Assembly (NCBI RefSeq): GCF_042660085.1
Contig: NZ_JBHSTI010000008.1
Span: 1,080,001 to 1,112,000, forward strand
Length of the DNA stretch: 32,000 nt
DNA from: Longivirga aurantiaca
Lineage (GTDB): Bacteria > Actinomycetota > Actinomycetes > S36-B12 > CAIYMF01
Direction of reading: 5' to 3'
The notes under the pieces were generated by a model, which saw only the letters and a list, made by a program, of their open reading frames with translations, searched no databases and had not been told where the DNA came from. The position numbers were made by a program, and so were the translations under genes. Shown piece by piece: positions 6,813 to 27,381 of this stretch (position 1 is its first letter; each line of letters starts with the position of its first letter).

Positions 6813-6854
6813 GGGTTACTGACAATGGACTGGCCAGAGCGCGAGGCTAGAGGC

Positions 6855-7055: not shown

Positions 7056-7092
7056 CTTGTCCGCTGTGCCCTCCTCGCCGATCTCGCATCTA

Positions 7093-7110: not shown

Positions 7111-7111
7111 G

Positions 7112-7124
7112 AACAACCTTAGAA
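7112..7124. repeat. inverted repeat, right arm (aacaaccttagaa)
   Basis: Perfect reverse complement of 6800..6812. Directly abuts direct repeat copy 2. Confidence 0.6.
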
Positions 7125-7356
7125 GCCGCACTCGCGCTGGTGAAACGCTGGGAACCGCGTCCTGGTTAGACTCATTGCGAGTCCAACTCGTCTCCGGAAG
7201 CCATTGCGCCACAAGGGGTTAGACGTCGGTGGAGTCATAGACATGAGCCATAGTGAGAGCCGGGTCGCGGCCGACCTCGGCGACGGTCACGTTCGCGTAG
7301 GACGGAGCCGATGTCATCGGCCACCACGGCCAGCCTCGGCTTGTAGCCTGACCATC

Positions 7357-7869: not shown

Positions 7870-7974
7870 TAGCGGGATGGACACGACGTTGCTGGAGTCT
7901 GGAGCCGACCACCATCGTGCGCTGCGTGCCACGCGACCGCTTGCGAGAGAACGGCTAGCTGGGAGCCGTACCTC

Positions 7975-9474: not shown

Positions 9475-9550
9475 GTGCGCCTGACCGGCGACACCTATTT
9501 CGTTGAGTGAACCGCCGTCTGCGCTGACGTCCCCTGCCAGGATCTCACCC

Positions 9551-10384
9551 ATGCGCCAGAGCGATCTGTACGAACTCCTGACCGGTGACGACAACGACTG
9601 CGTGTACCACTACACGTCGCAGCCAGGTTTGCACGCCATCCTTGCGACCGGATCACTTCGTCTCAGCACCTTCAATAGCCTGAACGATCCTCGTGAGAAC
9701 AAGAAGTGGATGCCCGACGAGTTGCTGGGCCACGCCGGCGACGTCGACGATGCCTGGTTCGAGGCAGACCGAGCCATGGAGGAGGCGGTCGATCGCTTGC
9801 TACGGCGGGGCGTCAGAGTCGGCTGTTTCACCGAGACGCGATCAAGTGGCTCTGGGCATGGGCTCGCCAAGGGCTGGGCTCGGCCGGCTATGTGGGCTCA
9901 CTACGGGGCCGCCCATCAGGGGGCATGTCTGGTCTTCGACCGCGGAGCTATTGGTCAAGCCGTGTCGGATCACGTCCCCGTCCGAGACGGGAACCTGACG
10001 ATGTGCGGTGCCGTGGACTACACGGATCGTGAGTTGACCTTGCCTTACCTCGGCGCTCCATCGACTGTGGTCGAACTGAAGGAGTTGTTGGACGCGGTGA
10101 CCATGGAACGTGACGTCGTTCCGAGCCTGTACTTGCAGAAGAACACGGACTGGTCAGGTGAGCGTGAATGGCGTGTGCTGGTCAACCAGTGGGACCTGCC
10201 TGAATCAAACCTGGACGAGCCGTTGTACGTCCCGTGGGAGGGAGCACTGCTGGGGGTCGTCCTAGGTTCTGAGTATGGTCCACGCGTTGTCGCGGAACGA
10301 CTCTCAGGCGGTTTGCCCCTGCTGACCTGCAGTTGGACGTCGCGTCGCGCAACGTTGCAGCACTCGACAGGCGCAGCTGGATAA
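9551..10384 (+). CDS. DUF2971-family protein (277 aa)
   Basis: Trimmed to the ATG at 9551. N-terminal VYHYTSQPGLHAILATGSLRLSTFNSLNDPRE matches the DUF2971 signature (YHYT...L...NDP.E). Confidence 0.8.
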   Translation: MRQSDLYELLTGDDNDCVYHYTSQPGLHAILATGSLRLSTFNSLNDPRENKKWMPDELLGHAGDVDDAWFEADRAMEEAVDRLLRRGVRVGCFTETRSSGSGHGLAKGWARPAMWAHYGAAHQGACLVFDRGAIGQAVSDHVPVRDGNLTMCGAVDYTDRELTLPYLGAPSTVVELKELLDAVTMERDVVPSLYLQKNTDWSGEREWRVLVNQWDLPESNLDEPLYVPWEGALLGVVLGSEYGPRVVAERLSGGLPLLTCSWTSRRATLQHSTGAAG

Positions 10385-10640
10385 CTTGAGTTGAGCTGCT
10401 GCACTCGATAAGCCGTGCACAGTCAGTGGCACGCGACAACCTCAAGGAATGAGTCCGGCTTTCGATCTCGTGACGCTTGCCGAGCCGGCGATCACCGGGC
10501 TGAACCTCACGGACACTGATCGACCGCCCCATCGGTACAGCTTCGGCGAGTATCCGGGCCCCATGGAGCGATGGTCGACTGAGCCCTCGATCGGACGGCT
10601 GGGGCGTCGGCCACCGCGTCGGACTGCTTCGACGGCACGT

Positions 10641-11831
10641 CTACAAAGGCGCGGGGAGTCGCCGAATCGTTCCCGGTTCGAGCCGCAGGCGCGAGTTCGC
10701 GTCGCATGAGCCGGCGTCGCACATGGCGGCGCTGGTGAGGAAGAACACGGCTACATCAGCGTCTCGATCCCTGCTGGAACGCCACAAGATGCCGTCCACG
10801 GGCAGGTCGTAGCGGAGGTGCTCAGCAATGACCTGGGTAGGGATGTATTCCAGGTTCTGTCGGTCGTCTGGACTGGCTACCTCGGTGACGTCCTTGACGA
10901 AGTCGAGGAGGAACTCGACCGGGCCACGGAGATGCCGGCGCGCTGGGTCGAAGAGCGAAGGAACCTCGGGTAGGTCGCGCAGATCCACGACGCTGAGATC
11001 CGTCAGTTGGGTGAACATTCCCACGGTTGCCTCGTCAGTTGGCCCCGAGTAGCCAGCTACCTCCCTATGAGCGCCCTCATCAGTAGAGGCACCGTAGAAC
11101 GCCCCGATGCCTTTCGGGCTCATTCGATTGTCGCGGGCAATCGAGTCCGGGGGTGAGCCGAGGCTGGCAGCGTCATCGTGCCGATCCCCGGGTCCGTGGA
11201 CGCGCGCACGCCACCAGGTGGTGCCAGCCGGTAGCCGCTTCGTCAGACCGACTTCGTTAGCCGCGGCTACGACCGCAGCGGGCACCGCGTGCATAGGGAT
11301 GCTGCCTGCGCCGTCCGCGGTGGAGTCGTCAAGCGTTAGGAATGTGTACCGCCTCTGATGCTTCACATAGTCGCGAAACGCCTGCCACCCCCACCGAAGG
11401 GCCTCAGCTGGCATTGCTGCATATGGGTCCTTCTGACACCAGAGCTCATCGCTGATCGCCCACAGGATGGCTTCTAGGACGCCCTGCTGTTCGGTGATCT
11501 CGAAATCATCCAGCAGGTCGTAGGTGTCGAAGGTCGTTACGCGATACCCGCCCTCTCGGCCATCGAAGCCGGCGCCTTGTGCCGGGTCCTCGTACTCGTA
11601 ACGAAGACCCTCGACAATCAGCTGGACGACCCGCTCCAACGGCGCCGAGGCGTCGGGCGACTGTGGCGACAAGCCGCAGAAGCTACACGCATCTTGACCG
11701 CCTTCCGAACGTACAAAGGCGACCAGCCATGGCTCAGACAAGCATCGGGAACACACGATTCCATCGGTGTCGCGGTAGCCGCGTGCCTCGATCGCCTCGG
11801 CGTAGCGCTTGGTGAGTCCCATAGCACTCAT
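10641..11831 (-). CDS. RES-domain protein with an N-terminal zinc-ribbon-containing domain (396 aa)
   Basis: The core WWRARV...NRMSPKGIGAFYGAS...GAHREV fits the RES (Arg-Glu-Ser) domain. The N-terminus carries CSRC...CSFC. The domain order resembles HEPN/RES-NTD1 + RES proteins. Confidence 0.8.
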   Translation of the reverse strand: MSAMGLTKRYAEAIEARGYRDTDGIVCSRCLSEPWLVAFVRSEGGQDACSFCGLSPQSPDASAPLERVVQLIVEGLRYEYEDPAQGAGFDGREGGYRVTTFDTYDLLDDFEITEQQGVLEAILWAISDELWCQKDPYAAMPAEALRWGWQAFRDYVKHQRRYTFLTLDDSTADGAGSIPMHAVPAAVVAAANEVGLTKRLPAGTTWWRARVHGPGDRHDDAASLGSPPDSIARDNRMSPKGIGAFYGASTDEGAHREVAGYSGPTDEATVGMFTQLTDLSVVDLRDLPEVPSLFDPARRHLRGPVEFLLDFVKDVTEVASPDDRQNLEYIPTQVIAEHLRYDLPVDGILWRSSRDRDADVAVFFLTSAAMCDAGSCDANSRLRLEPGTIRRLPAPL

Positions 11832-12132: not shown

Positions 12133-12395
12133 GCGAAGCTGGCTGTACCCCTCGCACCTGCGACAACTGACAGCAATCAGTGTGTCTCGCATGTCCATCT
12201 TTAGGCCAACGTTGCCGACCACCTCGAGGACGTCGACGGCGTGTGACGCAAGCTCGCAAGCGGCATGGCCGGACGCCCGGCGTCTGATACTTCCCGTGAC
12301 CCCAGGCGCCCCGCTGCATCCGCTAGCGCCCCGGTCTGCACCGCTCGCAGCCCGACGCCCGGCTCGTTGTCGGTGCCCCCGGGTACACCAGTGGT

Positions 12396-13187
12396 GTGAT
12401 CACGCATGAGGACCTCGACTGGTGGCTCGAGACCGCCCCCGCCTTGACCTGGACGTTCGCCAAGACATACGCCGACACGGCCCCGCACGAGTACGTCGTC
12501 GCCGGGCGCAACGGCTGCCCTCTGAGCCATGGCGACTTCGTACGGGCGGCCAAGGTCATCGCCACGTTCGGCCGCCCCGCCAAGTTCTACTCGATGACCG
12601 GCATCTACCTCACAAGCCGGGACGGGGGACTGAAGTGGTGGACCATGGACGCCGACCTCGACAGCACCGACCTGATCAACCAGGCCACCACCGACCGCGT
12701 CTACGGACCCCAGGACGCCCCCAACACCCGCACCGGGTCCACCGTTCCGGAGGACGCACTCGCAACCGAGTACGACCGCGCCCGCGACCGCCGGTGCGAC
12801 GAGATCCTTGCTGAGCACATCCGCCGCCTCTTCCCGGAGGGCAGTCCAAGGACGCTGGACATCGGATGCGGCACCGGTCTGCCCCTGGACTTCGGCGTCA
12901 TCGACGCCGGCACGTACACCGGCCTGGATCACAGCACCGCCATGCTCAACATGCTCGTGCGGAAGCACCCGCACGTACGGGCTCTCATCCCTGCGTCCTG
13001 GAACGAGGGCGTCGTCATCGGTGCACCGTTCGACCTTGTCCTCAACATCGAAGGCCCGGACGTGGACCCCGACCAGATGCAGCGACGGAGCTCCGGCTGG
13101 GTGATCACCGCGCGCGACGGAGACGTCGCTGTGGTGCCTGGGAAGGCGCGCGACACACGGTCCGGCACGGTTAGCGTCTCGCCATGA
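12396..13187 (+). CDS. class I SAM-dependent methyltransferase-like protein with an unassigned N-terminal domain (263 aa)
   Basis: Motif I LDIGCGTGLP (nt ~12855-12884) followed by TGLDHS. I saw no DPPY/NPPY or PC-type DNA-methyltransferase motif. The N-terminal ~110 aa (WTFAKTYADTAPHEYVV...KWWTMD) is conserved-looking but I cannot name it. Confidence 0.8.
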   Translation: MITHEDLDWWLETAPALTWTFAKTYADTAPHEYVVAGRNGCPLSHGDFVRAAKVIATFGRPAKFYSMTGIYLTSRDGGLKWWTMDADLDSTDLINQATTDRVYGPQDAPNTRTGSTVPEDALATEYDRARDRRCDEILAEHIRRLFPEGSPRTLDIGCGTGLPLDFGVIDAGTYTGLDHSTAMLNMLVRKHPHVRALIPASWNEGVVIGAPFDLVLNIEGPDVDPDQMQRRSSGWVITARDGDVAVVPGKARDTRSGTVSVSP

Positions 13188-14683
13188 CGGATTCGACTCC
13201 TGTACCGAACCAGGCCGGGGGACTGCTGGCCGCGCTGGTCCCGTTCGGAGTGCTGCGTCAGCCCGAGGTCGCCCTCACCACCGGGATCTGTTGGGTACTT
13301 GGCCTGGACGGGGCGGCGGGTGCGCTCGACGCTCTCATCGCCCGAAGCGGCATCACCCCGGACAGCGCAGGCCGATGGAGGGGCGAGGTGGTCGGTGACG
13401 GTGGACGCTCCGATCTCGAGTACGCCTGGGGCGATCCCCCGACAACTCGAGTCATCGTCGAGGCCAAGATCGGCCACAGCCTCACCCCGGAGCAGTTGGT
13501 GGGCTACGCCGACCGGCTGCCTGACACAGGTGGGCTCCTGGTCGTGCTGGCACCGGCCGCGCGCAGAGCCGAGGCGCTGGAAGTGGTAGCTCGCTGCCGA
13601 GACCTCACCGCCGGCCCGGCCACGTTCGCCGTCTGGACCTACGACGAGGTCCTGGAGCGGCTCGAAGCCGCCCTGCCCCATAGCGGCGACGTCGCCCAGC
13701 TGCGCGGCCTCGTCCAAGCGCACAACGCCACGGACATCGACCCGTTCCTCCCCGACGAGCTCCTCGAAGCCAACGCGTCGCGTCGTGAGGACGTGTGGTG
13801 GGTCGTCGACCACGCCTCATTCGGCATCCGCGAATCCCGGCAGCCCTCCGGCACCGACTGGAACCTCCTGCATCGTCGGTACCTGCCCGTCGGCAACTAC
13901 AGCGCGGCCGTCGCCGTCGGCGTCGGGAGGAAGGATCCGGGCAACGACCCGACTCGGCCATGGGCGTGGCTCCGTGTCGCCGGTGCCAGCGCTCACGGCC
14001 GCCTCGCTCGACGCGCGCTCGCCAGCATCAGACCCGGAACTGAGGAGACCAAGGACGAGACTTGGCTGCCGCTGAGGATCGAGCCGGGCCTCTACGGTAG
14101 CCAAGCGGCGGAGCGACTCCGATCAGCGCTGGAGAGCCTCATCGACGACCTTGCGGCCGCCATCACCGTCGAGATGGAGCACCAGCTTGACCAGGCCCGC
14201 CATCTCGACACCGCCATGCTCGACGGCGTCCTGGGTATCGGTCCCCTCGAAGCGAACGATCTGCTTGCCGGCTCCGAGCGGCGCCATGAGGACATCTGGA
14301 CCCTGCTGACCGAAGCCAGCCGCCCCCTTTACCCGGACCGGATCTACCCGGTCCAGACCAGCGACGAGGACTACGAGCGCGTGCGCTACATGCGGGTTGG
14401 CGCGTCGGAGGCGCACATCGCGACGTGCCTCCTGCGGCGGGGGAGGAACGACTCCGCTCCGGCCGCGTGGCTTCGGGTGCACCGGAGCACCTCACATGCC
14501 GAGATCGGTCGTCGTGTTCTCGAGGAACTGGCTCCAGGTCAAGTGGTCGACGATCCCAACGGGTGGGCGGTTCCCGTGCGCATCCCCACCGGTGTCGGTG
14601 GGCCGGCGATGCTCGCCGAGGTCCATGCACAGATCAGCGAGCTGTTCACGCGCTTCGCCGCGTCCATCGTTCGAGGCTCGTAG
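13184..14683 (+). CDS. PD-(D/E)xK nuclease-like protein with an internally duplicated C-terminal region (499 aa)
   Basis: Its ATG overlaps the upstream stop (ATGA at 13184-13187). N-terminal GRSDLEY...RVIVEAKIG is a D...ExK core. Two tandem ~150-aa segments each begin LL..(R)RED(V/I)W and contain AWLRV...SH...RR.L...PG...W.(L/V)P.RI..G. Confidence 0.75.
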   Translation: MTDSTPVPNQAGGLLAALVPFGVLRQPEVALTTGICWVLGLDGAAGALDALIARSGITPDSAGRWRGEVVGDGGRSDLEYAWGDPPTTRVIVEAKIGHSLTPEQLVGYADRLPDTGGLLVVLAPAARRAEALEVVARCRDLTAGPATFAVWTYDEVLERLEAALPHSGDVAQLRGLVQAHNATDIDPFLPDELLEANASRREDVWWVVDHASFGIRESRQPSGTDWNLLHRRYLPVGNYSAAVAVGVGRKDPGNDPTRPWAWLRVAGASAHGRLARRALASIRPGTEETKDETWLPLRIEPGLYGSQAAERLRSALESLIDDLAAAITVEMEHQLDQARHLDTAMLDGVLGIGPLEANDLLAGSERRHEDIWTLLTEASRPLYPDRIYPVQTSDEDYERVRYMRVGASEAHIATCLLRRGRNDSAPAAWLRVHRSTSHAEIGRRVLEELAPGQVVDDPNGWAVPVRIPTGVGGPAMLAEVHAQISELFTRFAASIVRGS

Positions 14684-14857
14684 AGACATCGGAGATCGAG
14701 CGCGCGGAAGTCGAGTCAGGCGATGCGCTCCTGCCCCGCGGCGGCGGTGGCGCCTTCGCTGTCGGACCCGGGCGAGATCATGAGGTCAACGGACCGTCCA
14801 GACGATGCTGGCAACCATCAGCGTCGGGGCACAGCCGTCGAGATCTGAGGAGTCACC

Positions 14858-15802
14858 ATGGATGCCCGAGAGGCCAAGCGGCTTGCCAACGAGCACTTGC
14901 GTGGTTCTCGCCTGACTGCATCCCGGGCCTCGCGCCACCGCGACGCCTGGGTCGTGTCCTACGTCGACGCGGACAACCCGGACGTGATGCTCGACGGCGG
15001 AGGCCTCATCGTGACGATGGACGGAGCGGTGATCGACGTAAGCTCCGTGCCCGGTGAGATCGACCGCGTGCTCGACGAGAGAGCACCGCGAGGGGAGGAT
15101 CCCGACCTACCGCGCGACGAGGCGGAGGAGCTGCGCGCCCTCATCGCGGCTCGGCTGCCCTGGCCCGGCGTCCTGGAGGAACCCGTCGAAGCGTTCGCCG
15201 CCGTCGAGCAGCTGCGCAGTGCTGGTCGTGAGGTCTTCCCGGCGCGCGGGCTGGAACTCGCCGCGCTCGCGCTGGTGCCCTTCCAAGAAGTGCGTGTGGT
15301 GATCGTCGGCCTTGACCCGTATCCGACGCCGGGTCATGCGATGGGACTGGCGTTCTCCGTTCCACCCGAAGTGCGGCCGCTGCCGGCGGGCGTGCGGAGC
15401 ATCCACGCCGCAATGCGGCACGACGGCTTCGACCCTCCCGACCACGGCGACCTGTCCGGCTGGGCCAGGCAGGGGGTGCTTCTGCTGAACCGGGCACTCA
15501 CCTACGAACGAGGACGGAAGGCTGGAGCGCACCTGCCCATCTGGCGAGACTTCACGGACCAGGTGATCCGAGTGCTAAACGAGCGGGACGAGCCGGTGGT
15601 GTTCGTTCTGTGGGGGAACGAGGCGCAGAAGGTCGGCGCCCTCGTCGACGCCTCGCACCACCACACCGTGACGGCACCGCATCCTTCTTCCCGGGGGGCC
15701 TACCGGAAGGCATCCCAGGACGCGGGGACGTTCACCACGGTCAACCGGCTCCTCGGTGCAGAGATCCACTGGGAACAGGCAGGCGGGCGCTCCCACTCGT
15801 AG
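14858..15802 (+). CDS. uracil-DNA glycosylase family 1 paralogue with an extra N-terminal domain (314 aa)
   Basis: The C-terminal ~220 aa matches the Ung layout: VRVVIVGLDPYPTPGHAMGLAFSV (canonical GQDPY), GVLLLNRAL, VLWGN, APHPSSRG (canonical HPSPLS). The N-terminal ~95 aa (AKRLANEHL...WVVSY...LDGGGLIVTMDGAVIDV) looks YrhB/immunity-protein-like, which is tentative. Confidence 0.9.
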   Translation: MDAREAKRLANEHLRGSRLTASRASRHRDAWVVSYVDADNPDVMLDGGGLIVTMDGAVIDVSSVPGEIDRVLDERAPRGEDPDLPRDEAEELRALIAARLPWPGVLEEPVEAFAAVEQLRSAGREVFPARGLELAALALVPFQEVRVVIVGLDPYPTPGHAMGLAFSVPPEVRPLPAGVRSIHAAMRHDGFDPPDHGDLSGWARQGVLLLNRALTYERGRKAGAHLPIWRDFTDQVIRVLNERDEPVVFVLWGNEAQKVGALVDASHHHTVTAPHPSSRGAYRKASQDAGTFTTVNRLLGAEIHWEQAGGRSHS

Positions 15803-15931
15803 GTTCGCCAGAAGCAGTCGGACCACCAGGGACGGAACGTTCCGCGGGTCGTCAGCCGCAATGTCATCGTGACTGTCGGATGGACATTGATTGACCGACG
15901 ACACTAACCCTGAGTACGTGGCGGTCTAGCG

Positions 15932-18139
15932 ATGGACAGCAGAGAATCGCGGGACAACTTCCTCGACGTCTTCTTCGGGCCTGGCAATGACCTCGGGATA
16001 GACCCGAACACCATCGAGGGCGCTGATCCATCGCACAACTTCCTGAAGGACCTGATTCACGACGTGAGGGAAGGTTCGCCGTGGCCCTGGCTCTTGCCTC
16101 GGCGGGTAGGTGACGGAGCACAGCCAACCTGGTACGCCATTGCCGCCGACTACGCCGATTTCCGACGCCTTGGCGCTGAGTTGGCCGCAGTGACAGGCGA
16201 TCCGTACTCGGACTTCTCTCCCGAAGCGGCATCGCTCGTATCGTCGGATCCAGTCGAGTTCGCGATCTTGAGTCTCGGTGCTAACGCCCACGCATACCGA
16301 TTCACTGCGTCGCCAGGACAGGTGGTCCCACTTCGAATCGCCCTGGAACGACTTCACCGCGCCTGGACTCTCCGACCGAAGCGCGGGTGGGTCCGCGTTC
16401 GCCCGTTGGGGCGCGTTCTACGAGACTTCGAACTTGCCTTGGCTGGGCACAAGTACGAGTCGGCGGTCGAGGCGATCGGGGAGATCGAGCGAAACCGGCA
16501 ATTGACGGCGACCAACCTCCTCTTTCTGCGCTTCCGGTTGGCAGCGACCTTCGAAGATCCACGAGACGCACTCAACTTGCCGGATGTGGACACGCTCATC
16601 ACCATCAGGCGACCCCTCGCAGTGACGACTGCGCTTCAGCAGATCGTCTTCGATGCAAATCTGGTCGATACCGATGGGCCGGTGCCTGTTGACCAGGCCA
16701 TCGAAATCTTCAGTCGGGACTTGGCCCAGTCATACGGTCCACTGTTCACCACCCTCAGAGCGAGCGACGACGCGTCGGCCGTCCGCCTGCAGATGCTCGC
16801 CACAGTCAACAGCGCTCGGCCAAACGAGGCGTTCGCTGACGAGGCGCTTGCGCGACCCTGGAACGCGGGTGTTCGGTCTTGGTTGCAGGCCGTTTGGGAT
16901 CGGCGCCAGCAGCGCTCCGACTCAGCGCGTACGGCGACCCAGAACTTCCAACTCGGCGATCTGGACGGGGCCTTCGCGGTCGCTCTCGTTGATGAACCGA
17001 GCCAACTGCGCGCGAAGATCCTCCTGGTTTCAGCAGTCTCCATTGGTACGAAAGACGCGGCACAGTCTGCGCTCGATGCTTTCGATGCACTGTCGCTGGA
17101 GGAGCAGGGGCAACTTGGGCTCGACGGTCTGGTCAAACTCGCCCTACTGGAACTCCGCGAGCGGACTCGCTTCCTTCCAAGCACGTGGGCGGACTGGTTC
17201 GATCGCATTGCGCAGCACCCCCATCGAGAGACCATCGACTTGCTGGACGAGGCGCTGCCAGGCTGGATGGCGTCGGAACTGGACTCTGATCAAGGTGTTG
17301 CGGCCCTCACCAACCTGTTCCTGGCAACCCGCCCGGGCGATCAGATGGCTCTCGTTGCCGACGCCGTTCCTAGAGCACTGACCTACTGCCAACGGTCGGG
17401 CGCTTCCGACACACGCTTGGCGCCACTTCATCATGCGCTGCTGGCCGTCCTCACATACGAGTCTGATCTGACCGCTACCGACCTGAGCACCATCTCTGAG
17501 ATCGCCGCGACTGTTCTTGGCTGCGGGATGGATGAGTCGCAGTACTCGGCGCTGCTAAGAGACCTGTTGGACGTCTGGACGCGCGTGAAGTCCTGGCGCC
17601 GCTGCGATTGGGCGGCCGACGTGCTGGACGCCGTTGTTTCGTCGCCCGCACCCGTGCCTGCCGAGCGTGATGCATTCGTGGTCGACCTCTACTCCCAATT
17701 GACTGCATACGCCGATCGTGTGAACGAGACCCAGCGCGTGTTGCTTCGCCTCCTTGGTCGGGAGGCGAGCCAACCAACCGAAATCTGGTCCTCACCCACA
17801 GAATCCGAGGACGAGATTGGTGGCACTGAGTCGTCTCCACTGTCGGGGTTGACCGTTGGCATCTACACGCTGGACGAGGGTGCGGCCGCCACAGTCCGAG
17901 GGTGGATTCTGGAGGTCGCTCCGTCGGCCCGCGTGGTGCTGAACCATGAACACGATGCCTCCGAGCGACTCACGGCGATGGTGAGAAGCAGCGATATCGT
18001 CGTTGTGGGGTGGGCGACGGCGAAGCACGCCGCCACCAATCACATCCGTGACGTGAAGCCGGACAGCACGCAAGTGGTCATGGCTCAAGGTCGCGGGGCG
18101 ACTGGTCTATTTCGAGCAGTCTTGTCTGCGATGGCGTAG
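15932..18139 (+). CDS. large hypothetical protein (735 aa)
   Basis: Long ORF with coding-type composition, mostly helical-looking. The C-terminal ~100 aa (LTVGIYTLDE...SSDIVVVGWATAKHAATNHIRD...QVVMAQGRGATG) looks like a small Rossmann-like alpha/beta module reminiscent of DUF2325 (tentative). Confidence 0.75.
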   Translation: MDSRESRDNFLDVFFGPGNDLGIDPNTIEGADPSHNFLKDLIHDVREGSPWPWLLPRRVGDGAQPTWYAIAADYADFRRLGAELAAVTGDPYSDFSPEAASLVSSDPVEFAILSLGANAHAYRFTASPGQVVPLRIALERLHRAWTLRPKRGWVRVRPLGRVLRDFELALAGHKYESAVEAIGEIERNRQLTATNLLFLRFRLAATFEDPRDALNLPDVDTLITIRRPLAVTTALQQIVFDANLVDTDGPVPVDQAIEIFSRDLAQSYGPLFTTLRASDDASAVRLQMLATVNSARPNEAFADEALARPWNAGVRSWLQAVWDRRQQRSDSARTATQNFQLGDLDGAFAVALVDEPSQLRAKILLVSAVSIGTKDAAQSALDAFDALSLEEQGQLGLDGLVKLALLELRERTRFLPSTWADWFDRIAQHPHRETIDLLDEALPGWMASELDSDQGVAALTNLFLATRPGDQMALVADAVPRALTYCQRSGASDTRLAPLHHALLAVLTYESDLTATDLSTISEIAATVLGCGMDESQYSALLRDLLDVWTRVKSWRRCDWAADVLDAVVSSPAPVPAERDAFVVDLYSQLTAYADRVNETQRVLLRLLGREASQPTEIWSSPTESEDEIGGTESSPLSGLTVGIYTLDEGAAATVRGWILEVAPSARVVLNHEHDASERLTAMVRSSDIVVVGWATAKHAATNHIRDVKPDSTQVVMAQGRGATGLFRAVLSAMA

Positions 18140-18154
18140 GGGAAGGGCCGTGTC

Positions 18155-18610
18155 GTGATCGGGCTTTCGTCGACGGGGGATGCCTCCAGCGGACGAATCC
18201 AGGAGATCGTCTCGCTCCTGCTCAAGCAGGAGCTCGCGTTCGGCGAGGAGATCGTCCTCACGAAGCAGGACGGGCTTGTGACACATGCGCGTCCCGACTT
18301 CTTCTTCCGGCTGGCTCCGGACCGAGGTGTCCTGGCCGAGGTCGAGCGAGGCGGCACGACCACGAACAATCATGACCTCAAGGACATCTGGAAGACCCAC
18401 GTCAGCCCCGACGCGCAGCACCTCTTCCTTATCGTGCCGAACGCGAACTGGCGGGAAGGCGGTGCCGCGCGCGAGCGGCCCTTCCACCGGGTGGTGACGC
18501 GGCTGGGAGCGTTCTTCGGCGATCCGAGGCGCGAGGTCGATGTCGTGAGCCTTCTCGTCTTCGGCTACGGCCGTGACGGGTGGGGGCCACCCGTCACGGC
18601 CGAGGGCTAA
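18155..18610 (+). CDS. small PD-(D/E)xK nuclease-like protein (151 aa)
   Basis: GTG at 18155 lies 7 nt after GGAAGGG and 15 nt after the upstream stop. Contains RPDFFF...GVLAEVERG...LKDIWK, a D...ExE/K-type restriction-endonuclease-like core. Confidence 0.7.
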   Translation: MIGLSSTGDASSGRIQEIVSLLLKQELAFGEEIVLTKQDGLVTHARPDFFFRLAPDRGVLAEVERGGTTTNNHDLKDIWKTHVSPDAQHLFLIVPNANWREGGAARERPFHRVVTRLGAFFGDPRREVDVVSLLVFGYGRDGWGPPVTAEG

Positions 18611-18616
18611 GCGGCG

Positions 18617-19447
18617 TCAGCGCCAGACGTAGCCGCCGTAGCGGCTGGCAAGGTCGAGGTCGCCGGGCCGGATGGCGATCGGCCCGCCAGTCTTCGCCAG
18701 CGGGCCGAGTGTCGGCCGTGAGCCGTCGGCGCAGGGCACGCATCCGAGCCGCGACAGGAGGAGACCCCGGTGGACTTTCCAGAGCAGCGCGGCGTGGATC
18801 GACGCCGACACCCAGGGACCACCGCGCATCGTGCACAGCGCGTCGGGCTCGTCGTCGATCCGCATTGGACAGGTGGGCGGTGACGCCACGTCCTCGCGCA
18901 AGGCGATGCCGCCCCGCAGTCCGGGCAGGATCCCGGTCGGGACGATGGTCAGTGTGGTGGGGGACAGGGCGGTGATGGCCGGCTGCCAGTAGTCACGGGC
19001 GATCTCGAGGATCGCCTCTTCGCGGATGCCGGTCACAACGAGGGCGTCCTCGACCCAGGACCGGTCCGGAGGTGTTGTCGCGGCCACGCCTTCGATCGAT
19101 GCGCCCTGCTCGGCCAGCTCGCTCCGGAGGCGCTCGTTCAACCTCTCGTTCTCCGAGAGCGATCGGCGGTTACCCAGTGGGTTCCAGGCCGTGACCAGCC
19201 AGTGGTCGGCGGGCGCCGCAGCCTCGATCTCCTCGGGTGTGAGCGGGCGCTCGACGGAGGCGCGCGTCACGACGTTGCCGACCTCTGTCCGCCACGTGTG
19301 CTGCTGGATCAGATACGACTCGATCACGCTCGTGTTGGGCCGCTGCCGCACGCTCCGACCTTCGGGTCGGCCGAGGCCTTCAGGCTCGACGTACGGCACA
19401 AGGGCGTCGTGGGCGCGCTGGATCTCGGGATCGGTCATGTCGGTCAT
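18617..19447 (-). CDS. DUF3293-family protein with a Cys-containing C-terminal extension (276 aa)
   Basis: ORF 18617..19696 trimmed to the ATG at 19447 (MTDMTDPEIQ), preceded by GAGGGGG. WLVTAWNPLGNRRSLSENERLNERLRSEL...WVEDALVVTGI...QPAI fits the DUF3293 signature. The C-terminal ~110 aa (CPMR...LCTMRGGPW...LGCVPC) is unassigned. Confidence 0.8.
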   Translation of the reverse strand: MTDMTDPEIQRAHDALVPYVEPEGLGRPEGRSVRQRPNTSVIESYLIQQHTWRTEVGNVVTRASVERPLTPEEIEAAAPADHWLVTAWNPLGNRRSLSENERLNERLRSELAEQGASIEGVAATTPPDRSWVEDALVVTGIREEAILEIARDYWQPAITALSPTTLTIVPTGILPGLRGGIALREDVASPPTCPMRIDDEPDALCTMRGGPWVSASIHAALLWKVHRGLLLSRLGCVPCADGSRPTLGPLAKTGGPIAIRPGDLDLASRYGGYVWR

Positions 19448-19580
19448 GGGGGCCCCCTCGTCGCTTCCGCCCATCGGTCGAGGGGCGGCGGATCTTCCTC
19501 CGGGGGCACCGTGCGACGAGCTGCGCGGTTGCCAGGCGACCAGCCGGAGGGCTTGTGGTCGCGCTTCTTGATCTGGGTGA
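19448..19580 (-). promoter_or_regulatory. candidate riboswitch leader with SAM-I/SAM-IV-like architecture (copy 1)
   Basis: On the minus strand: GAUC/GAUC (P1). GCGACC...GGUCGC (P2). GGCAACC-hairpin-GGUGCC (P3 with a bulged A). CCGGAGG is complementary to CCUCCGG in the P2 loop. CCGCCC...GGGCGG hairpin. The 3' ACGAG is complementary to the P3 loop and overlaps the SD. The helices are kept by compensatory changes in copy 2. Confidence 0.55.
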
Positions 19581-19585
19581 ACTGT

Positions 19586-20512
19586 ATGCCGGACCACCGA
19601 CAACGCGTCTGGCACAGTGGCCGTGTGGGGGTTGATCCGGTCGAGCGGCTGCTCGCGCTGCAGCAGTACCGGCACAACGGGGCCCGGGTGCCGCACAAGC
19701 CGCTGCTCGTTCTGCTGGCGCTCCAGAAGCTTGCGACGACGGGCTCGAGCGACCTCGCCTGGAGCGAGGCCGAGGACCGTCTTGCCGGACTGATCGCGGA
19801 GTTCGGCCCCACGACGAAGACGAGTCGGCCTCAGAGCGCGGCCTACCCGTTCACGCGACTCCGCGCGGACGGCGTGTGGGCGTTGTCAGTTGATGTGCCC
19901 GACGACCTAGTCACGCCACTGCGCGAGACCGACGTCCACGGCCGGCTCGATCCGGCGATCGACGCGGCGCTCATCCAGGACCCTCGACGGCTGGAGGGAG
20001 TAGTGCGCAGCCTGGTCGACGCTCAGTTCCCCAGCACGATCGCGCCCGACGTTCTGCTGGCTGTCGGGTTCGACCCGGAGCTGCTCGCACCGGGCTTGGC
20101 CGCGGTGACGCCGGAGGAGCGCAAGCGCAGCGTTGCTTGGCGAGACGCGATCGTGCGCGCCTGGGACGGCGCCTGCGCCTTCTGCGGCTATGACGGATCG
20201 CTGGGCGGAGCGCCGGTCGGGATCGAGGCCGCCCATGTGCGCTGGTTCAAGGTCGGCGGCCCCGACGAGCTCGACAACGGGCTCGCGCTCTGCTCCTTGC
20301 ACCACAAACTCTTCGACCGCGGCGCCCTCGGGCTGTCACCGGATGCGCGGGTGCAGGTGTCGGAGCACTTCCGGGCATCTGGTGTTGGCAAGCAGGTCTA
20401 CGACCTTCACGGCCGGGAGCTCCGGCCGCGGCCGGGCGCTCAGTTGCCCGCGCCGGTCCACGTCGAGTGGCACCGCACCCAGGTCTTCAGGGGCGATCCG
20501 CTCGCTGCCTGA
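19586..20512 (+). CDS. HNH_2-type endonuclease with an N-terminal winged-helix-like domain (Type IV / McrA-like, 308 aa)
   Basis: Trimmed to the ATG at 19586. N-terminal YRHNGARVPHKPLLVLLALQKL...FGP...YPFTRLRADGVWAL. C-terminal CAFCGYDG...IEAAHVRWFKVGGPDELDNGLALCSLHHKLFDRG is an HNH_2 motif. Confidence 0.8.
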   Translation: MPDHRQRVWHSGRVGVDPVERLLALQQYRHNGARVPHKPLLVLLALQKLATTGSSDLAWSEAEDRLAGLIAEFGPTTKTSRPQSAAYPFTRLRADGVWALSVDVPDDLVTPLRETDVHGRLDPAIDAALIQDPRRLEGVVRSLVDAQFPSTIAPDVLLAVGFDPELLAPGLAAVTPEERKRSVAWRDAIVRAWDGACAFCGYDGSLGGAPVGIEAAHVRWFKVGGPDELDNGLALCSLHHKLFDRGALGLSPDARVQVSEHFRASGVGKQVYDLHGRELRPRPGAQLPAPVHVEWHRTQVFRGDPLAA

Positions 20513-21832: not shown

Positions 21833-22011
21833 GATCCCACCACCAACTCCCACAGGCAGTGGGGGAGTCTCGCTCAACCATCGATCGGGCTGGGGGCAAC
21901 CGTTTGCCGGGCAAGCTGCCCGACAGCGGATCGTGGACGGACACGCACGCCCAGATGCGGCCGTGAACGTCGCACCCCTGTGCCAGCATCGGTCCCGGAG
22001 GGGATGCACTG

Positions 22012-22992
22012 ATGAAGCAAGGGTTGGCGGATCGCGCCGCGGGCGCGCTGCTCGGGATGGCGGCCGGCGACGCGCTCGGTGCGGGCTACGAGTTCGGGCC
22101 TGCGCTGTCGGCTGCTACTGAGGTCGAGCTGATCGGCGGCGGCTCGTTCGGCTGGGCGCCGGGGGAGTGGACCGACGACACGCAGATGGCCGTGCCTCTG
22201 CTCGAAGCCGCGGAACGGGCTGCCACATCAGGTACCGCGCTGACGGACCACCTCGATCACGTCGCTCGTCGATGGGTCGACTGGGCGGTCACGGCGGCCG
22301 ACGTCGGCAACCAGACCCGCTCGGTGATCTCGACGGTTCGACACTCGGGCGACGTGTCGGCCGCGGCGCTGTCGCAGGCGTCGCACGCCCTGCACGCGTT
22401 GACCGGTCGCACCGCCGGCAACGGATCGCTGATGCGCACGGCCCCCGTCGCGCTGGCCTACCTCTCCGATCCCGCGGGTCTCGCTTCGGCAGCCCGAGAG
22501 GTCAGCTCTCTGACGCACTGGGACGACGACGCCGGCGACGCGTGCGTGCTCTGGTGCCTCGCGATCCGGCATGCGATGCTGCACGGCGCCTTCGACCTCG
22601 CGGGTGGGCTCGACGCCCTGCCCGAGGAACGGCGTACGACGTGGGCCGCGCGGATCGCAGAGGCCGAGAAGGCGCGGCCGCGGGACTTCCCGGAGAACGG
22701 CTGGGTCGTGCACGCACTTCAGGGGGCATGGTCGGCGATCACGACCACGAAGGTGCCGGACGGCGACCCGCCGCTGCACCTGCGGCTCGCGCTCGAGAAC
22801 GCCGTGCGCGGCGGGGGTGACACCGACACGGTCGCCGCGATCGCGGGGCAGCTGCTCGGTGCTCGCTGGGGTGCATCGGCCGTGCCGATGGGGTGGACCG
22901 CGAAGCTGCACGGGTGGCCGGGCCTCACCGGTCAGGCGCTCGCCGAACGCGGCGCAGCGCTGGCTGGCGGTGCATCGCGGCTCAGGGCCTGA
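22012..22992 (+). CDS. ADP-ribosylglycohydrolase family protein (326 aa)
   Basis: The ATG is preceded by GGAGGGG. Motifs LGMAAGDALGAGYEF, EWTDDTQMA, GNGSLMR and GGGDTDTVAAIAGQLLGARWG are typical of the DraG/ARH family, with the metal-binding acidic residues present. Confidence 0.9.
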   Translation: MKQGLADRAAGALLGMAAGDALGAGYEFGPALSAATEVELIGGGSFGWAPGEWTDDTQMAVPLLEAAERAATSGTALTDHLDHVARRWVDWAVTAADVGNQTRSVISTVRHSGDVSAAALSQASHALHALTGRTAGNGSLMRTAPVALAYLSDPAGLASAAREVSSLTHWDDDAGDACVLWCLAIRHAMLHGAFDLAGGLDALPEERRTTWAARIAEAEKARPRDFPENGWVVHALQGAWSAITTTKVPDGDPPLHLRLALENAVRGGGDTDTVAAIAGQLLGARWGASAVPMGWTAKLHGWPGLTGQALAERGAALAGGASRLRA

Positions 22993-23079
22993 TCGCCGTG
23001 GCCGCTGGTCTTCTGGTTGCAGAGAGTAGTCCGCCGCGCTGCGGGTAGCGTCGTGCTGTCGCCGATGGAGTGAGGGAAC

Positions 23080-24120
23080 GTGGGACTGAGCACGCCCAAC
23101 ATCACCGCCCTGGTCTGGACGGACGCGAAGGAGGTGCTGCCTCACGAGGCGCACGACTTCACGCCCTGGCTGGCGGGCAACCTCGACCTCCTGGGCGACG
23201 CGCTCGGACTGGACGAGATGGCGCTGGTCCAGACGGAGTGGAAGGTCGACTCGTTCGCCCTCGACATCCTTGCCCGCGGGCGTGATGCCGATGGCGAGGT
23301 CACGGTCGTCATCGAGAACCAATACGGGCAGACCGACCACCGGCATCTCGGTCAGATCCTCACGTACGCCGCGCATGCCGCCGCTGGCGGCCACCGGGTG
23401 CTCGCTGTGTGGATCACCGAAGAGGTAAGGCCCGCGCACCTCGCTGCGGTCGAGTTCGTGAACCGGGTGGCGGCCTCGGACGAGTCGTCGTTCGGCATGG
23501 TGCTGATGCGGGTGCGCTTCGCCCCGGCACCCTCCGGCTGGCACGTCGATTTCCAGGTCGACTCTGAGCCCAACACCTTCCTGGGATCCTCGACCACGAC
23601 CGGCGGTGGCGGCTCCACGGCCGGGGCGCGGGGGGCCTTCCTCGAAGCGGTGGTCGCGCAGGTGGATCCCGCGGTCGCCTCGGCCGGGGTCAAGAGGTCA
23701 GGCGGAATCAACCGGAAGCAGGGCGCTGCCATCTATCGATTCCCGCTGGGGGTCGAGCTGGGGAAGTACGCCACCATGCGCATCGTGATCGGAACGGACT
23801 TCACGAACACGGCGCTCTACATCCAGAGCAGGCCGACTGCGGAGGAGAACAGGGCCATAGCCGTCGTGGTCCGTGAGCACGCCGAACCCTGGATCGCCCA
23901 CTACGGCCTCCGAGTCGACGAGTGGTTCGGGAGCGCGGAGACGACCAAGCGCGAGCGGATCATCACGCACTTCGAGCACGGCTACCTCGACGGCCAGGCG
24001 GCCCAGATCGCCAAGGACGCGGCTACGGTGGTGAGTGCCTGGGCGCGTCTGCTCGCGGAGCATCCGCTGACGAACATCCTTGAGCAGGCCGCGCAGGTGA
24101 CGCCGAACGAATCGGTCTGA
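23080..24120 (+). CDS. PD-(D/E)xK nuclease-like protein, DUF4268-type (346 aa)
   Basis: The GTG is preceded by GAGGGAA. HDFTPWLAGNLDLLGDALGL...FALDILA...VVIENQYGQTDHRHLGQILTYAAH is the conserved N-terminal nuclease module of this family. The C-terminal half is DUF4268-like. Confidence 0.8.
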   Translation: MGLSTPNITALVWTDAKEVLPHEAHDFTPWLAGNLDLLGDALGLDEMALVQTEWKVDSFALDILARGRDADGEVTVVIENQYGQTDHRHLGQILTYAAHAAAGGHRVLAVWITEEVRPAHLAAVEFVNRVAASDESSFGMVLMRVRFAPAPSGWHVDFQVDSEPNTFLGSSTTTGGGGSTAGARGAFLEAVVAQVDPAVASAGVKRSGGINRKQGAAIYRFPLGVELGKYATMRIVIGTDFTNTALYIQSRPTAEENRAIAVVVREHAEPWIAHYGLRVDEWFGSAETTKRERIITHFEHGYLDGQAAQIAKDAATVVSAWARLLAEHPLTNILEQAAQVTPNESV

Positions 24121-25418: not shown

Positions 25419-26183
25419 GTGCGAAGCCTGGGGCTCGACCTTGCCGCTGATCCAGTCAATACGGCGCTATGCGCCATCGACTGGGCAACGGGGGAGATTC
25501 AGGTCGCCGTCGGCCCGGTGACGGACGAGCACATCGTCGGGGCTGTGGGGGACTCGGACGTGCTCGGCGTCGATGCGCCTCTCGGTTGGCCACAGGACTT
25601 CGTCGAGGCAATCACCAGCCACCACGAGCTGGGTGCATGGCGCTTTCCTGAGGCCGATTCGCCGGCTGCTCGTCGTTCGTTGAGGTTTCGCGCTACCGAC
25701 CTGGCCTTGATGGCAGAGGGGCATCGACCGCTCAGCGTCGCGTCAGACCTCATCGGAGTGGTCGCACTCCGAGCCGCCAGGCTCCAGCACCTCTTGGCTG
25801 CGAACGGGCGTGAGGTCGACCGCACTGGAACGACGGGGCACCTCGTCGAGACGTATCCAGCGGCGGCGCTGAGTTCTTGGGGGCTCCGGTCCACGAGCTA
25901 CAAGGGAGCCAAGAACCGGGATGCTCTCGCGGGGATTGCCGCTCTGATGGTGGAGAGCGTCGGCCCCGTCCTTCCCGGAGCAGCCGACGTGCTCCGGGGT
26001 CGCAGCGATCACGTCGTGGACGCGTTCGTCTGTGCCCTTGTGGCTGCCGCGGCCCGCGTGGGGTTGACCCAGCCACCCCACCGAGATCAATGGGAACTGG
26101 CCCGGACAGAGGGGTGGATCCACGTGCCGACGGCGACTGCGGGCGACGTGGCCCGGGCCGCATCGCGACAACTTGCGAGTTAG
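25419..26183 (+). CDS. DUF429-family (RNase H-like fold) protein (254 aa)
   Basis: GTG start. LGLDLAA...GVDAPLGWP...RFRATD...VETYPAAALSSWGL...DAFVCALVAAAA fits the DUF429 pattern. Confidence 0.7.
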   Translation: MRSLGLDLAADPVNTALCAIDWATGEIQVAVGPVTDEHIVGAVGDSDVLGVDAPLGWPQDFVEAITSHHELGAWRFPEADSPAARRSLRFRATDLALMAEGHRPLSVASDLIGVVALRAARLQHLLAANGREVDRTGTTGHLVETYPAAALSSWGLRSTSYKGAKNRDALAGIAALMVESVGPVLPGAADVLRGRSDHVVDAFVCALVAAAARVGLTQPPHRDQWELARTEGWIHVPTATAGDVARAASRQLAS

Positions 26184-26295
26184 CGTCTTCCCTGGTCACC
26201 GGTCGGGGCCTGGTTCGCAGCGGCGCCGGTCGTACAACTCTCGTCCAGCGCTGCGGCTCGCAGTCGCACCAGCCCTCGTCCGTCACGTGACCCAT

Positions 26296-26431
26296 GCCGA
26301 CTCCGTCCGCGTCGCTTCCGCCCCCGTCGGTCGAGGGGGCGGCTGATCTTCCTCCGGGGGCACCGTGCGACGAGTCGCGCGGTTGCCAGGCGGCCAGCCG
26401 GAGGGCTTGTGGCCGCGCTTCGTGATCTGGG
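26296..26431 (-). promoter_or_regulatory. second, orphan copy of the riboswitch-like element
   Basis: By eye it is roughly nine-tenths identical to 19461..19577, while the flanks diverge. An ATG at 26295 lies downstream on the minus strand, but that ORF runs into the 3' end of the convergent DUF429 gene. Confidence 0.5.
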
Positions 26432-26572
26432 CCGGACACAAGCCGCAGCATCCGACAACCCGGTGCCGGGCGAGGAGCAGGGATACGTCGATGTCCTTGC
26501 CCCGATGTCTCGAGCCTGGTCGGTCGGCTGTGCCGGCATCAGGATCGGAGGGAACGCACCGATGGGGGATGG

Positions 26573-26650
26573 GATCGCGGATCGCTGAGGCCGAGGCGGC
26601 CCGGTCGCGGGACTTCCCGGAGAACGGCTCGATGGTTCATGCGCTGCGCT
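26573..26650 (+). pseudogene. fragment of an ADP-ribosylglycohydrolase gene
   Basis: The DNA and its translation (RIAEAEAARSRDFPENGSMVHAL) parallel 22650..22720 of the intact gene (RIAEAEKARPRDFPENGWVVHAL). There is no surrounding ORF of that family. Confidence 0.55.
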
Positions 26651-26657: not shown

Positions 26658-27113
26658 TCATGAACCCGGGCGACCGCCGCGTGACGACTGTCGTCGGATC
26701 GCGACAGTTGCGGCGACCTGCTCGGTGATCGCCTCAGGCTCCTCGTGCTCCCAGAAGCGCAGGACCGTCCAGCCCTCTGCCTCGAGCCGGCTGGTGGTGT
26801 CCGCATCACGCTGCGCGTTGCGAGCCAGCTTGGGAGTCCAGTAGCTCTCGTTCGACTTGGGGGAGGTGCCGTGCTCCGGGCACGAGTGCCAGAAGCAGCC
26901 GTCGATGAAGACCGCGATCCTCAGCCGGGGGAACACGACGTCGGCCCGACGACGCCGATCGAAAGGGAGCGGGTAGTCCACCGAGTAGCGCAGACCGCTG
27001 GCGTGCAGCCGCTTGCGTACCGCCATCTCCGGCCCGGTGTCGCGACGGCGGTTGCCCAGCATCGAGCGCCGGACCGCGGGGCTGCTGGCCCAGGAGTCGG
27101 CGTCCGTCGTCAT
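26658..27113 (-). CDS. vsr: very short patch repair endonuclease (151 aa)
   Basis: Trimmed to the ATG at 27113. Hallmark motifs: RRDTGPE...LRY...AVFIDGCFWHSCPEHG...YWTPKLARNAQRD...GWTVLRFWEHE. Confidence 0.9.
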   Translation of the reverse strand: MTTDADSWASSPAVRRSMLGNRRRDTGPEMAVRKRLHASGLRYSVDYPLPFDRRRRADVVFPRLRIAVFIDGCFWHSCPEHGTSPKSNESYWTPKLARNAQRDADTTSRLEAEGWTVLRFWEHEEPEAITEQVAATVAIRRQSSRGGRPGS

Positions 27114-27381
27114 AGACCAAGGATCGCACCGGGCGCCGCCCGGGTGCCGGCCGACCGCTGCGGTATCGACGACGAGCCCGCTCGCGAGGGTCCACGCCAC
27201 GTCGTGCAGCCGCCTCGCTGCACGCGCTGACCGCGGCCTGATCGTCGTCATCGGCCCCGGGCCCGACGACCGTGCAACCGCGCGACATCCAGCGCGCTGC
27301 CGAGCAGCTTCGCGAACGGCGTGCTGCAGATGCCGGTGCGCGTGACCACACGCCGGTGGTCACGCGCACAAGCAGCGGGCT

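Follow-up and report, generated by a model that had tools for sequence, protein, structure and literature searches.

The window analyzed here is a 32-kb stretch of the Longivirga aurantiaca contig NZ_JBHSTI010000008.1 (positions 1,080,001 to 1,112,000), and the subject is an S-adenosylmethionine (SAM) riboswitch that it carries twice on the minus strand. Copy 1 ends 8 nucleotides (nt) before the AUG of a gene for a 276-amino-acid (aa) protein that joins the Pfam domain DUF3293 to a four-cysteine domain, and copy 2 lies elsewhere in the window. An earlier reading of the letters, made without database searches (the sequence-only reading), had described copy 1 as a riboswitch-like leader. The paired regions and pseudoknots (PK) of copy 1 and the other features of its transcription unit are as follows.

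19581..19603, minus strand: conserved upstream block, presumed promoter (TTGTCGG at 19603-19597, 10-nt spacer, -10-like hexamer TACAGT at 19586-19581)
19573-19570 with 19494-19491, minus strand: P1, 4 base pairs (bp), GAUC/GAUC
19550-19544 with 19503-19497, minus strand: PK-1, CCUCCGG with CCGGAGG, joining the P2 loop to the strand between P3 and P1
19533-19505, minus strand: P3, the GGCAACC...GGUGCC helix with a bulged AA
19520-19515 with 19462-19457, minus strand: PK-2, CUCGUC with GACGAG, joining the P3 loop to the 3' tail after P5
19488-19467, minus strand: P5 hairpin, outside P1
19458-19452, minus strand: Shine-Dalgarno (SD) sequence GAGGGGG, which begins with the two bases (19458-19457) that end the PK-2 3' strand
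19445..19458, minus strand: expression platform, comprising the SD and the AUG at 19447-19445
18617..19447, minus strand: regulated gene, 276 aa, DUF3293 by translation and Pfam
18568..18602, both strands: perfect 16-bp palindromic hairpin found as a blastn self-match, 15 nt after the stop codon

Identity and anatomy of the aptamer

The SAM-IV class was reportedly described by Weinberg et al. in 2008. A search of the window with Rfam cmscan at the gathering threshold returns only two matches, both to SAM-IV (RF00634) and both on the minus strand: copy 1 at 19573..19456 (64.2 bits, E 2.3e-9) and copy 2 at 26427..26307 (58.0 bits, E 5.9e-8), each covering the full-length model (positions 1-116). 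Because both copies exceed the curated gathering score of 38 bits over the full model, the element is, by covariance-model match, a member of the described class SAM-IV and goes beyond riboswitch-like. The program reports only the best member of a clan, and this is SAM-IV for every match. The conserved core (UCA-GA, GGCAACC, GGUGCC, CCGG, and GA-GA) is matched at the sequence level in both copies in the cmscan alignment.

The 4-bp P1, P2a/P2b, AA bulge of P3, external P5, PK-1, and PK-2 are common to copy 1 and the SAM-IV RNA (RF00634) of Mycobacterium sp. MCS resolved by cryo-electron microscopy (cryo-EM; PMC6890682). The core strings, the actinobacterial host, and a terminator-less position in a 5' leader are likewise shared with known representatives (PMC6890682; Mycobacterium avium MAV_4315, PMC3774663). 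SAM-I and the SAM-I/IV variants of the same clan (CL00012) share the ligand-binding core of P1, P3, and the junctions, whereas the periphery of P5 and PK-2 is specific to SAM-IV, with PK-2 as the distinguishing feature (PMC6890682). Copy 1 differs from the Rfam consensus in PK-1, where CCCGG:CCGGG has undergone a compensatory C-G to U-A change and gained two extra pairs. The resulting 7-bp PK-1 distinguishes this subgroup from known SAM-IV RNAs and is nearly invariant within it.

Most of the anatomy in the sequence-only reading stands. The strings and helices that it listed are present on the minus strand, with the first GAUC starting at 19573 and the AUG at 19447-19445. Its assignment to the SAM-I/SAM-IV clan can be narrowed to SAM-IV, and the covariance-model search that it had proposed gives matches on the predicted strand that clear the gathering score by a wide margin. 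The CCUCCGG/CCGGAGG pseudoknot corresponds to PK-1, and the complementarity of ACGAG to CUCGU in the P3 loop corresponds to PK-2, here CUCGUC with GACGAG. Its P2 is P2a/P2b in the SAM-IV nomenclature (PMC6890682), and the hairpin that it placed outside P1 exists, but the name P4 has to be replaced by P5 (PMC6890682). The differences between the copies are compensatory as described: P2 changes from A-U to G-C, and P5 of copy 2 is longer on both arms. One proposal fails. An alternative helix between CCCCUCG in the P5 arm and CGAGGGG, which was to sequester the SD, is confined to this single sequence: related leaders (L002, L004, L007, L008, L010, and L015; related loci are cited by number) lack the complementarity, and in L002, L004, L007, and L015 the P5 arm is CCGCCGCCCGCG, without a complement to the leader's own AGGAG.

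Covariation among related leaders

Fourteen related leaders were aligned, and the SAM-IV structure with both pseudoknots was imposed on the alignment according to the published architecture (PMC6890682). Standard pairs occupy 94.6% of cells, compared with 29 to 50% when the 3' partners are slid by 1 to 3 columns. Eleven pairs, spread over P1, P2a/P2b, PK-2, and P5, are changed on both sides, and none of 500 shuffles reaches the observed values. Covariation among leaders upstream of DUF3293 genes, which the sequence-only reading had proposed as a test, supports the structure. PK-1 (CCUCCGG:CCGGAGG) is 100% paired across the leaders and varies hardly at all. PK-2 is 85.7% paired, with C-G in six leaders and U-A in five at one of its pairs, and in L020 it reads CUCUCG:CGAGAG where the window has CUCGUC:GACGAG. 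The homologous leaders score 46.9 to 73.3 bits against RF00634.

Pairing of the riboswitch with DUF3293 genes

SAM-IV precedes homologues of the regulated gene in 13 of 17 testable loci, which belong to actinobacterial metagenome-assembled genomes (MAGs). It lies directly upstream on the same strand in L001/L017, L002, L003, L004, L005, L007, L008, L010/L012, L014, L015, L019, and L020 and is cut by the contig end in L006. The riboswitch-linked proteins are 41 to 90% identical to the window protein, and this range indicates that the pairing of riboswitch and gene is old and maintained. Relatives of the protein form 33 clusters at 90% among 5.8 billion proteins and come from MAGs labeled Candidatus Nanopelagicales, Kineosporiaceae, and Acidimicrobiaceae.

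Three of these loci vary the arrangement. In L020 (5835-6003), the riboswitch is separated from the DUF3293 gene by a 54-aa open reading frame (ORF), whose stop overlaps the start of the gene in TGAcGTG; judged from this junction, the two are translationally coupled, and the riboswitch controls a two-gene operon in that lineage. The element of L018 (8241-8866) is a sub-threshold SAM-IV variant (26.6 bits) with an enlarged P2, owing to a 33-nt insertion, and a changed PK-1 strand (CCGCAAGGGGAUC); a cysteine-rich ORF of 140 aa separates it from the DUF3293 homologue downstream. Decay of the aptamer or a shift in its specificity could account for these differences. L019 (1122-1498) carries a second SAM-IV element of the same variant (63.5 bits) before an 82-aa DUF2283 gene, about 7.7 kb from its DUF3293 cassette, with the same upstream block and the tail GACGAG-AAGGAG. 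This second copy indicates that the sensor cassette has been reused for another small conflict-island gene. In contrast to known SAM-IV RNAs, the cassette of upstream block, aptamer, and SD thus occurs before DUF3293, before DUF2283 (L019), and as a relic in the window.

Transcription unit of copy 1

The upstream block ends 7 nt before the first aptamer base. Its geometry, TGTCrG-N10/11-TAnnnT-N7/8-GATC, recurs in most aligned leaders; the closest relatives retain the TGTCrG box best, and the TAnnnT hexamer is present in every cassette but copy 2. Because a scan with an Escherichia coli-type sigma-70 consensus finds no promoter, the promoter role of the block is deduced from its conservation alone. 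The TGTCrG box is only 10 to 11 nt from TAnnnT, too near for a standard -35 element, and could serve as an operator or reflect recognition by an alternative sigma factor.

The divergent HNH gene starts at 19586, where the sequence-only reading had placed its ATG, and this annotated start falls inside the -10-like hexamer of the riboswitch unit. The HNH start in L017 is called 39 nt later. Either a single, extremely compact control region serves both divergent genes or HNH starts further downstream.

In the 14 leaders and L020, the SD (AGGAG or GGAGG in leaders other than copy 1) overlaps the PK-2 3' strand or follows it by no more than about 5 nt. A sequence scan found no intrinsic terminator, and control is therefore expected to act on translation. 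At the other end of the unit, the palindromic hairpin sits at the junction with the convergent gene 18140-18610 and is common to both genes; the 71-nt window around it (18555-18625) folds at -44.5 kcal/mol (z = -5.65). It is a probable bidirectional terminator, which would make the riboswitch-controlled gene a monocistronic unit.

DUF3293/four-cysteine protein

The downstream gene, taken for a DUF3293 gene in the sequence-only reading, matches PF11697 over residues 85 to 158 with 56.5 bits (gathering score, 25; E 4.4e-15). The protein consists of an N-terminal extension, the DUF3293 core (residues ~80 to 170), and a C-terminal domain with four cysteines. In the core, W88, W131, E133, and Q155 are invariant, and N89 (in TAWNP) and N100 nearly so; the C-terminal invariants in the homologue alignment include C193, C205, C236, and C239, which probably form a zinc-binding site. 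AlphaFold2 predicts a compact protein (predicted local distance difference test [pLDDT], 90.8; predicted template-modeling score [pTM], 0.88), and the model of the core by itself reaches a pLDDT of 92.9. In both models the core is a ferredoxin-like beta-alpha-beta-beta-alpha-beta sandwich.

Searches of PHROGs, NCBIfam, and PADLOC returned nothing for the protein, a sequence search of the Protein Data Bank (PDB) returned nothing significant, and the literature search found no paper mentioning DUF3293 or PF11697. A search with only the last 97 residues gave no match, the established homologues included. Fusions of DUF3293 to other domains occur in the wider family (P0132, P0190, P0159, and P0174); the partners are an SF1 helicase (AAA_11/AAA_12), TY-Chap1, an HD_4 phosphohydrolase, and CBS domains. 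Free-standing HD_4 and TY-Chap genes are neighbors of riboswitch-linked genes in L014, L015, and L019.

Similarity to phage SAM lyases

A Foldseek search of predicted viral structures places a phage DUF3293 protein first (E 9e-7). The next matches are T3-type “S-adenosyl-L-methionine hydrolases” and small early proteins of T7-like phages, with E values of 1e-3 to 3e-2 and template-modeling (TM) scores of 0.5 to 0.6 by target length; these superpositions have root mean square deviations of 2.5 to 3.9 Å over ~110 columns. The T3 SAMase belongs to Pfam PF23780 (S-AdoMet_lyase, 143 bits) and has been solved (7OCK, 8BB1). Profile comparison points to the same relatives: hhalign of 68 stand-alone DUF3293 proteins with 17 relatives of the T3 SAMase gives a score of 29.6 (E 2.7e-4, 83 columns), compared with 11.4 ± 2.2 (maximum, 17.5) in 150 column-shuffled controls and 9.9 in a reversed control. 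The alignment superposes family-invariant residues onto A17, N27, G55-x-Y57-x-E59, and Q94 of T3.

Phage SAM lyases such as the T3 SAMase and Svi3-3 have a ferredoxin-like core (PMC7877911), as does DUF3293. The phage enzymes form trimers whose active sites lie where subunits meet, and they split SAM into methylthioadenosine and homoserine lactone. Both families show, in collinear order, [ST]-A-[WF] within strand 1, an Asn that is invariant at the beginning of helix 1, G-x-[YW] with an invariant Glu behind it, and, past helix 2, an invariant Gln. SAM lyases have three strictly conserved ligand-binding residues, Gly56, Glu69, and Gln104 in Svi3-3 (PMC7877911). E133 and Q155 of the window protein are collinear with the lyase Glu and Gln, with an exact equivalence that is ambiguous between two hhalign alignments. 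DUF3293 differs from the phage enzymes in a hairpin between G-x-Y and the catalytic Glu that is ~9 residues shorter, and the window protein adds the N-terminal and four-cysteine domains. The DUF3293/four-cysteine gene is also cellular, unlike the lyase genes; IMG/VR holds no relatives of the gene or of the aptamer core.

The lyase similarity is moderate and nondecisive, and the protein is not filed here as a SAM lyase. The balance of the structural and profile evidence tilts slightly toward a shared fold, a distant relationship, and a SAM-type ligand.

Genomic context

By gene content, the window is a defense island. The genes recognized in it are as follows.

689-4337: McrBC (McrC, 689-2266; McrB-like AAA_5, 1884-4337)
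4277-5467: HNH (HNH_2)
5322-6740: DUF4379 zinc-finger protein
9485-10384: DUF2971
10641-11831: HEPN/RES
12327-13187 and 13175-14683: two genes without family assignment, neighbors of DpdD
14849-15802: UDG-family gene
15914-18139: DpdD (NCBIfam equivalog, 424 bits)
18140-18610, plus strand: 156-aa protein without family match, convergent neighbor of the DUF3293 gene
19586-20512: HNH, divergent from the DUF3293 gene
21967-22992: ADP-ribosylglycohydrolase
23074-24120: PDC-S11
25419-26183, plus strand: DUF429/PDC-S44
26658-27359: Vsr

The left half (689-11831) is a dense run of defense genes. Among the window ORFs scanned, no other dpd gene of the 7-deazaguanine DNA-modification cluster was recognized.

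The 156-aa protein is 80 to 86% identical in L001/L017, L002, and L004, whereas the DUF3293 proteins of these loci are only 45 to 73% identical, and its gene is always convergent with or near the DUF3293 gene. The gene probably belongs to the conserved core and marks the border of the island, and a conserved neighbor beside a diverged DUF3293 gene would place the cassette at the edge of a variable island. A defense-island location recurs in most loci with enough flank, namely, the window, L014, L017, L018, L019, and L021. The flanks of the latter five hold NERD, UvrD-like helicase, Fic, HipA, PemK, and Ssp-like genes, together with an HNH gene with a ScoMcrA DNA-binding domain and TY-Chap/vWA/DUF2201, RHS, integrase, and transposase genes.

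No met, cys, or metK gene occurs in any examined flank of the DUF3293 loci, and the sulfur, methionine, or SAM genes that usually accompany SAM riboswitches are not the setting of the window gene. A plasmid or phage origin of the window was considered and rejected: the phage collection holds no near match, and the sole plasmid match, to a Cupriavidus megaplasmid, covers 504 bp (2% of the query) at 76% identity. The 420-aa gene after HNH was also considered as a homologue of the 410-aa gene that follows DUF3293 in L014; the two are not homologous.

Function of the riboswitch and its gene

Linkage to a riboswitch is among the most reliable routes to a ligand for a domain of unknown function. The linkage to SAM-IV ties DUF3293 to SAM, and the independent evidence from fold and profile points the same way, to SAM lyases. 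By a narrow balance, the protein is best taken as one that has SAM itself or a SAM derivative, most simply a nucleoside, as its ligand or substrate. SAM binding would lock the double-pseudoknot fold of copy 1, and the bound fold would hinder the 30S subunit, as the PK-2 3' strand overlaps the SD or ends no more than about 5 nt before it. With the SD adjoining or overlapping PK-2, an abundance of SAM would silence translation and a drop in SAM would permit it; on this leader geometry, switching in the off direction, with the protein made at low SAM, is quite likely. Taken as a whole, a functional SAM-IV off-switch on a monocistronic, SAM-related conflict gene is a fairly likely reading of the locus.

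We suggest more tentatively that a shortage of SAM triggers the module and that it serves in conflicts with phages or mobile elements rather than in housekeeping methionine synthesis; this has rather less than an even chance. The defense-island location and the moderate similarity to SAM lyases lend the idea of phage SAM depletion circumstantial support. In a specific form, SAM-IV would guard the SAM pool: when a phage SAM lyase or MetK inhibitor drains SAM so that restriction-modification or BREX is evaded, the riboswitch would de-repress an effector or decoy derived from a SAM lyase. Such an effector would poison the trimer of the phage enzyme or complete SAM depletion as an abortive response, and the same sensor cassette would be wired to other conflict genes, e.g., DUF2283 in L019. 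This form is speculative and, as a complete scheme, unlikely. If the gene does respond to SAM depletion, it offers a testable case of a host sensing phage SAM destruction, a counter-defense measure.

Several observations weigh against the off-switch on a SAM-related conflict gene. For the switch, cryo-EM shows one and the same fold for SAM-free and SAM-bound SAM-IV in vitro (PMC6890682), and the minimum-free-energy folds of 11 leaders reveal no conserved alternative structure that would decide between off and on. For the linkage, the homologues in L009, L011, and L021 have no SAM-IV before them, and every comparative sequence is a metagenome assembly. For the conflict role, no known or candidate defense model in PADLOC matches the DUF3293 protein, and the contexts of L015 and L020 are not clearly defense islands. 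For the relationship with SAM lyases, the hhalign probability of DUF3293 against the T3 SAMase relatives is only 42%, PF23780 has no match to the protein even at an E value of 10, and Foldseek against the PDB has none at an E value of ≤0.001. With the core model, the T3 SAMase (7ock_J) comes only 24th in the PDB (E 0.37), among generic ferredoxin-like folds (ribosomal protein S6, ACT, PII); it has the highest query-normalized TM score (0.52) among the top 50 matches. The lyase glycine is replaced by Arg129 in the riboswitch-linked subfamily and is Gly in the wider DUF3293 family.

Alternatively, the riboswitch could provide ordinary metabolic feedback, with the protein as an unrecognized enzyme of methionine or SAM synthesis or salvage, acting for example on methylthioadenosine (MTA), S-adenosylhomocysteine (SAH), or homoserine lactone, switched on at low SAM, as all other targets of SAM riboswitches are, and located in the island incidentally. 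A documented SAM-IV target, the O-acetylhomoserine sulfhydrylase gene MAV_4315, is a sulfur/methionine gene (PMC3774663), but the DUF3293 genes never lie beside met, cys, or metK in the examined loci, and the same riboswitch variant precedes DUF2283, a family that does not comprise metabolic enzymes, in L019. A substrate related to SAM would fit a SAM-lyase-like fold, and L020 and L015 have metabolic or neutral flanks; however, the usual neighbors are toxin-antitoxin, restriction, NERD, Fic, and transposase genes, and the family is rare and patchy, with its 33 clusters in 5.8 billion proteins. Metabolic feedback is accordingly doubtful. If it applies, a missing enzyme of the SAM cycle in uncultured actinobacteria has been identified.

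Switching in the opposite direction would suit SAM homeostasis, with a SAM-degrading protein translated at SAM excess as negative feedback. This would be logical wiring for an active SAM lyase, but the catalytic glycine of the lyases is Arg129 here. The PK-1 5' strand contains CCUCC, which complements a GGAGG-type SD, and an anti-SD pairing in the apo state that is released by a SAM-stabilized PK-1 is conceivable; however, no CCUCC:SD pairing matches the strength of the 7-bp PK-1, and an SD abutting PK-2 favors occlusion in the folded state. No SAM-clan riboswitch is known to act as an on-switch, and we regard this direction as very unlikely.

Least credible among the readings of copy 1, if by a small margin, and likewise very unlikely is a variant aptamer that senses a SAM derivative matching the substrate of the protein (SAH, MTA, decarboxylated SAM, or SAM-AMP, a defense signal degraded by a SAM-lyase homologue [PMC10600005]): the gene context is noncanonical and the extended PK-1 differs from the CCCGG/CCGGG of Rfam and is kept across 14 leaders, but this change is peripheral and compensatory, the family core strings UCA-GA, GGCAACC, GGUGCC, CCGG, and GAAGA are all present, and the scores, 54 to 73 bits, are well above the gathering score.

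Comparison with known systems

Riboswitches of this class have been described before; novelty, judged by the literature search, lies in the regulated gene and its setting. The target in the window is a DUF3293/four-cysteine gene of the kind found in defense or conflict islands, unlike the sulfur/methionine gene of known SAM-IV. The search found no published description of the SAM-IV/DUF3293 pairing and no paper linking SAM riboswitches to anti-phage defense. If the off-switch on a conflict gene is correct, this is an unusual case of a SAM-clan riboswitch on an accessory defense-island gene rather than on sulfur metabolism.

The closest parallel on the protein side is the SAM-AMP lyase associated with CRISPR type III-B and CorA in Clostridium botulinum, a cellular SAM-lyase homologue in an immune locus (PMC10600005). 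DUF3293 is likewise a cellular, SAM-lyase-like protein in what appears to be an immune locus, and SAM-AMP lyase acts on a SAM-derived molecule. The two differ in that no cas, cmr, or corA gene is near the examined DUF3293 genes, while the C. botulinum enzyme is a recognizable SAM lyase and no riboswitch is reported for it.

Copy 2

The region of copy 2 comprises ~125 nt (26431-26307) that are 91% identical to copy 1. Its features are as follows.

26528..26645, plus strand: two ADP-ribosylglycohydrolase gene fragments, one from the start region and one internal, immediately upstream of copy 2
26434..26456, minus strand: upstream block, TTGTCGG kept; -10-like hexamer TTGTGT, in which the A at position 2 is lost
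26307..26427, minus strand: SAM-IV aptamer, fold intact, with one PK-2 mismatch (tail GACGCG instead of GACGAG)
26245..26306, minus strand: cargo remnant with SD-like GGAG and AUG at 26295-26293

Copy 2 is the only cassette without TAnnnT. The sequence-only reading had presented it as a second copy with every helix kept; the aptamer is indeed intact, but it no longer heads a gene. About 6 to 17 codons after the copy 2 AUG align to the starts of DUF3293 genes (MGHVTD-E versus MTDMTDPE), and then homology ends. A 181-aa ORF from the AUG at 26295 was rejected as a gene: it is Arg/Pro-rich, matches no family, and lies antisense to the good DUF429 gene. The ADP-ribosylglycohydrolase fragments match window positions 21978-22035 and 22649-22718 and the ADP_ribosyl_GH gene of L014 (blastn) and are also similar to the L017 gene. 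By these matches, they are scars of a past rearrangement between the Vsr-like gene and copy 2, and copy 2, as its truncated remnant indicates, is the decaying relic of another, paralogous cassette from which a rearrangement removed the gene.

In Clostridium acetobutylicum, an antisense RNA is under the control of an S-box riboswitch. Copy 2 could similarly function in a SAM-controlled antisense transcript into the 3' end of DUF429 or as a 3' untranslated region element of the Vsr-like gene. Its aptamer is intact (58 bits) and points into the convergent DUF429 gene 124 nt away, but the A of the -10-like hexamer is lost only here and PK-2 carries a mismatch. The downstream bases align to a DUF3293 start and then stop, ADP-ribosylglycohydrolase fragments flank the element, and no related locus has the same arrangement. 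Such a role is therefore quite improbable.

The relic also differs in lineage from copy 1. Its P2 (GCGGCC/GGCCGC) has the form of the L002, L004, and L007 lineage, whereas copy 1 has GCGACC/GGUCGC, which indicates that copy 2 is a paralogous cassette minus its gene and not a recent duplicate of copy 1.

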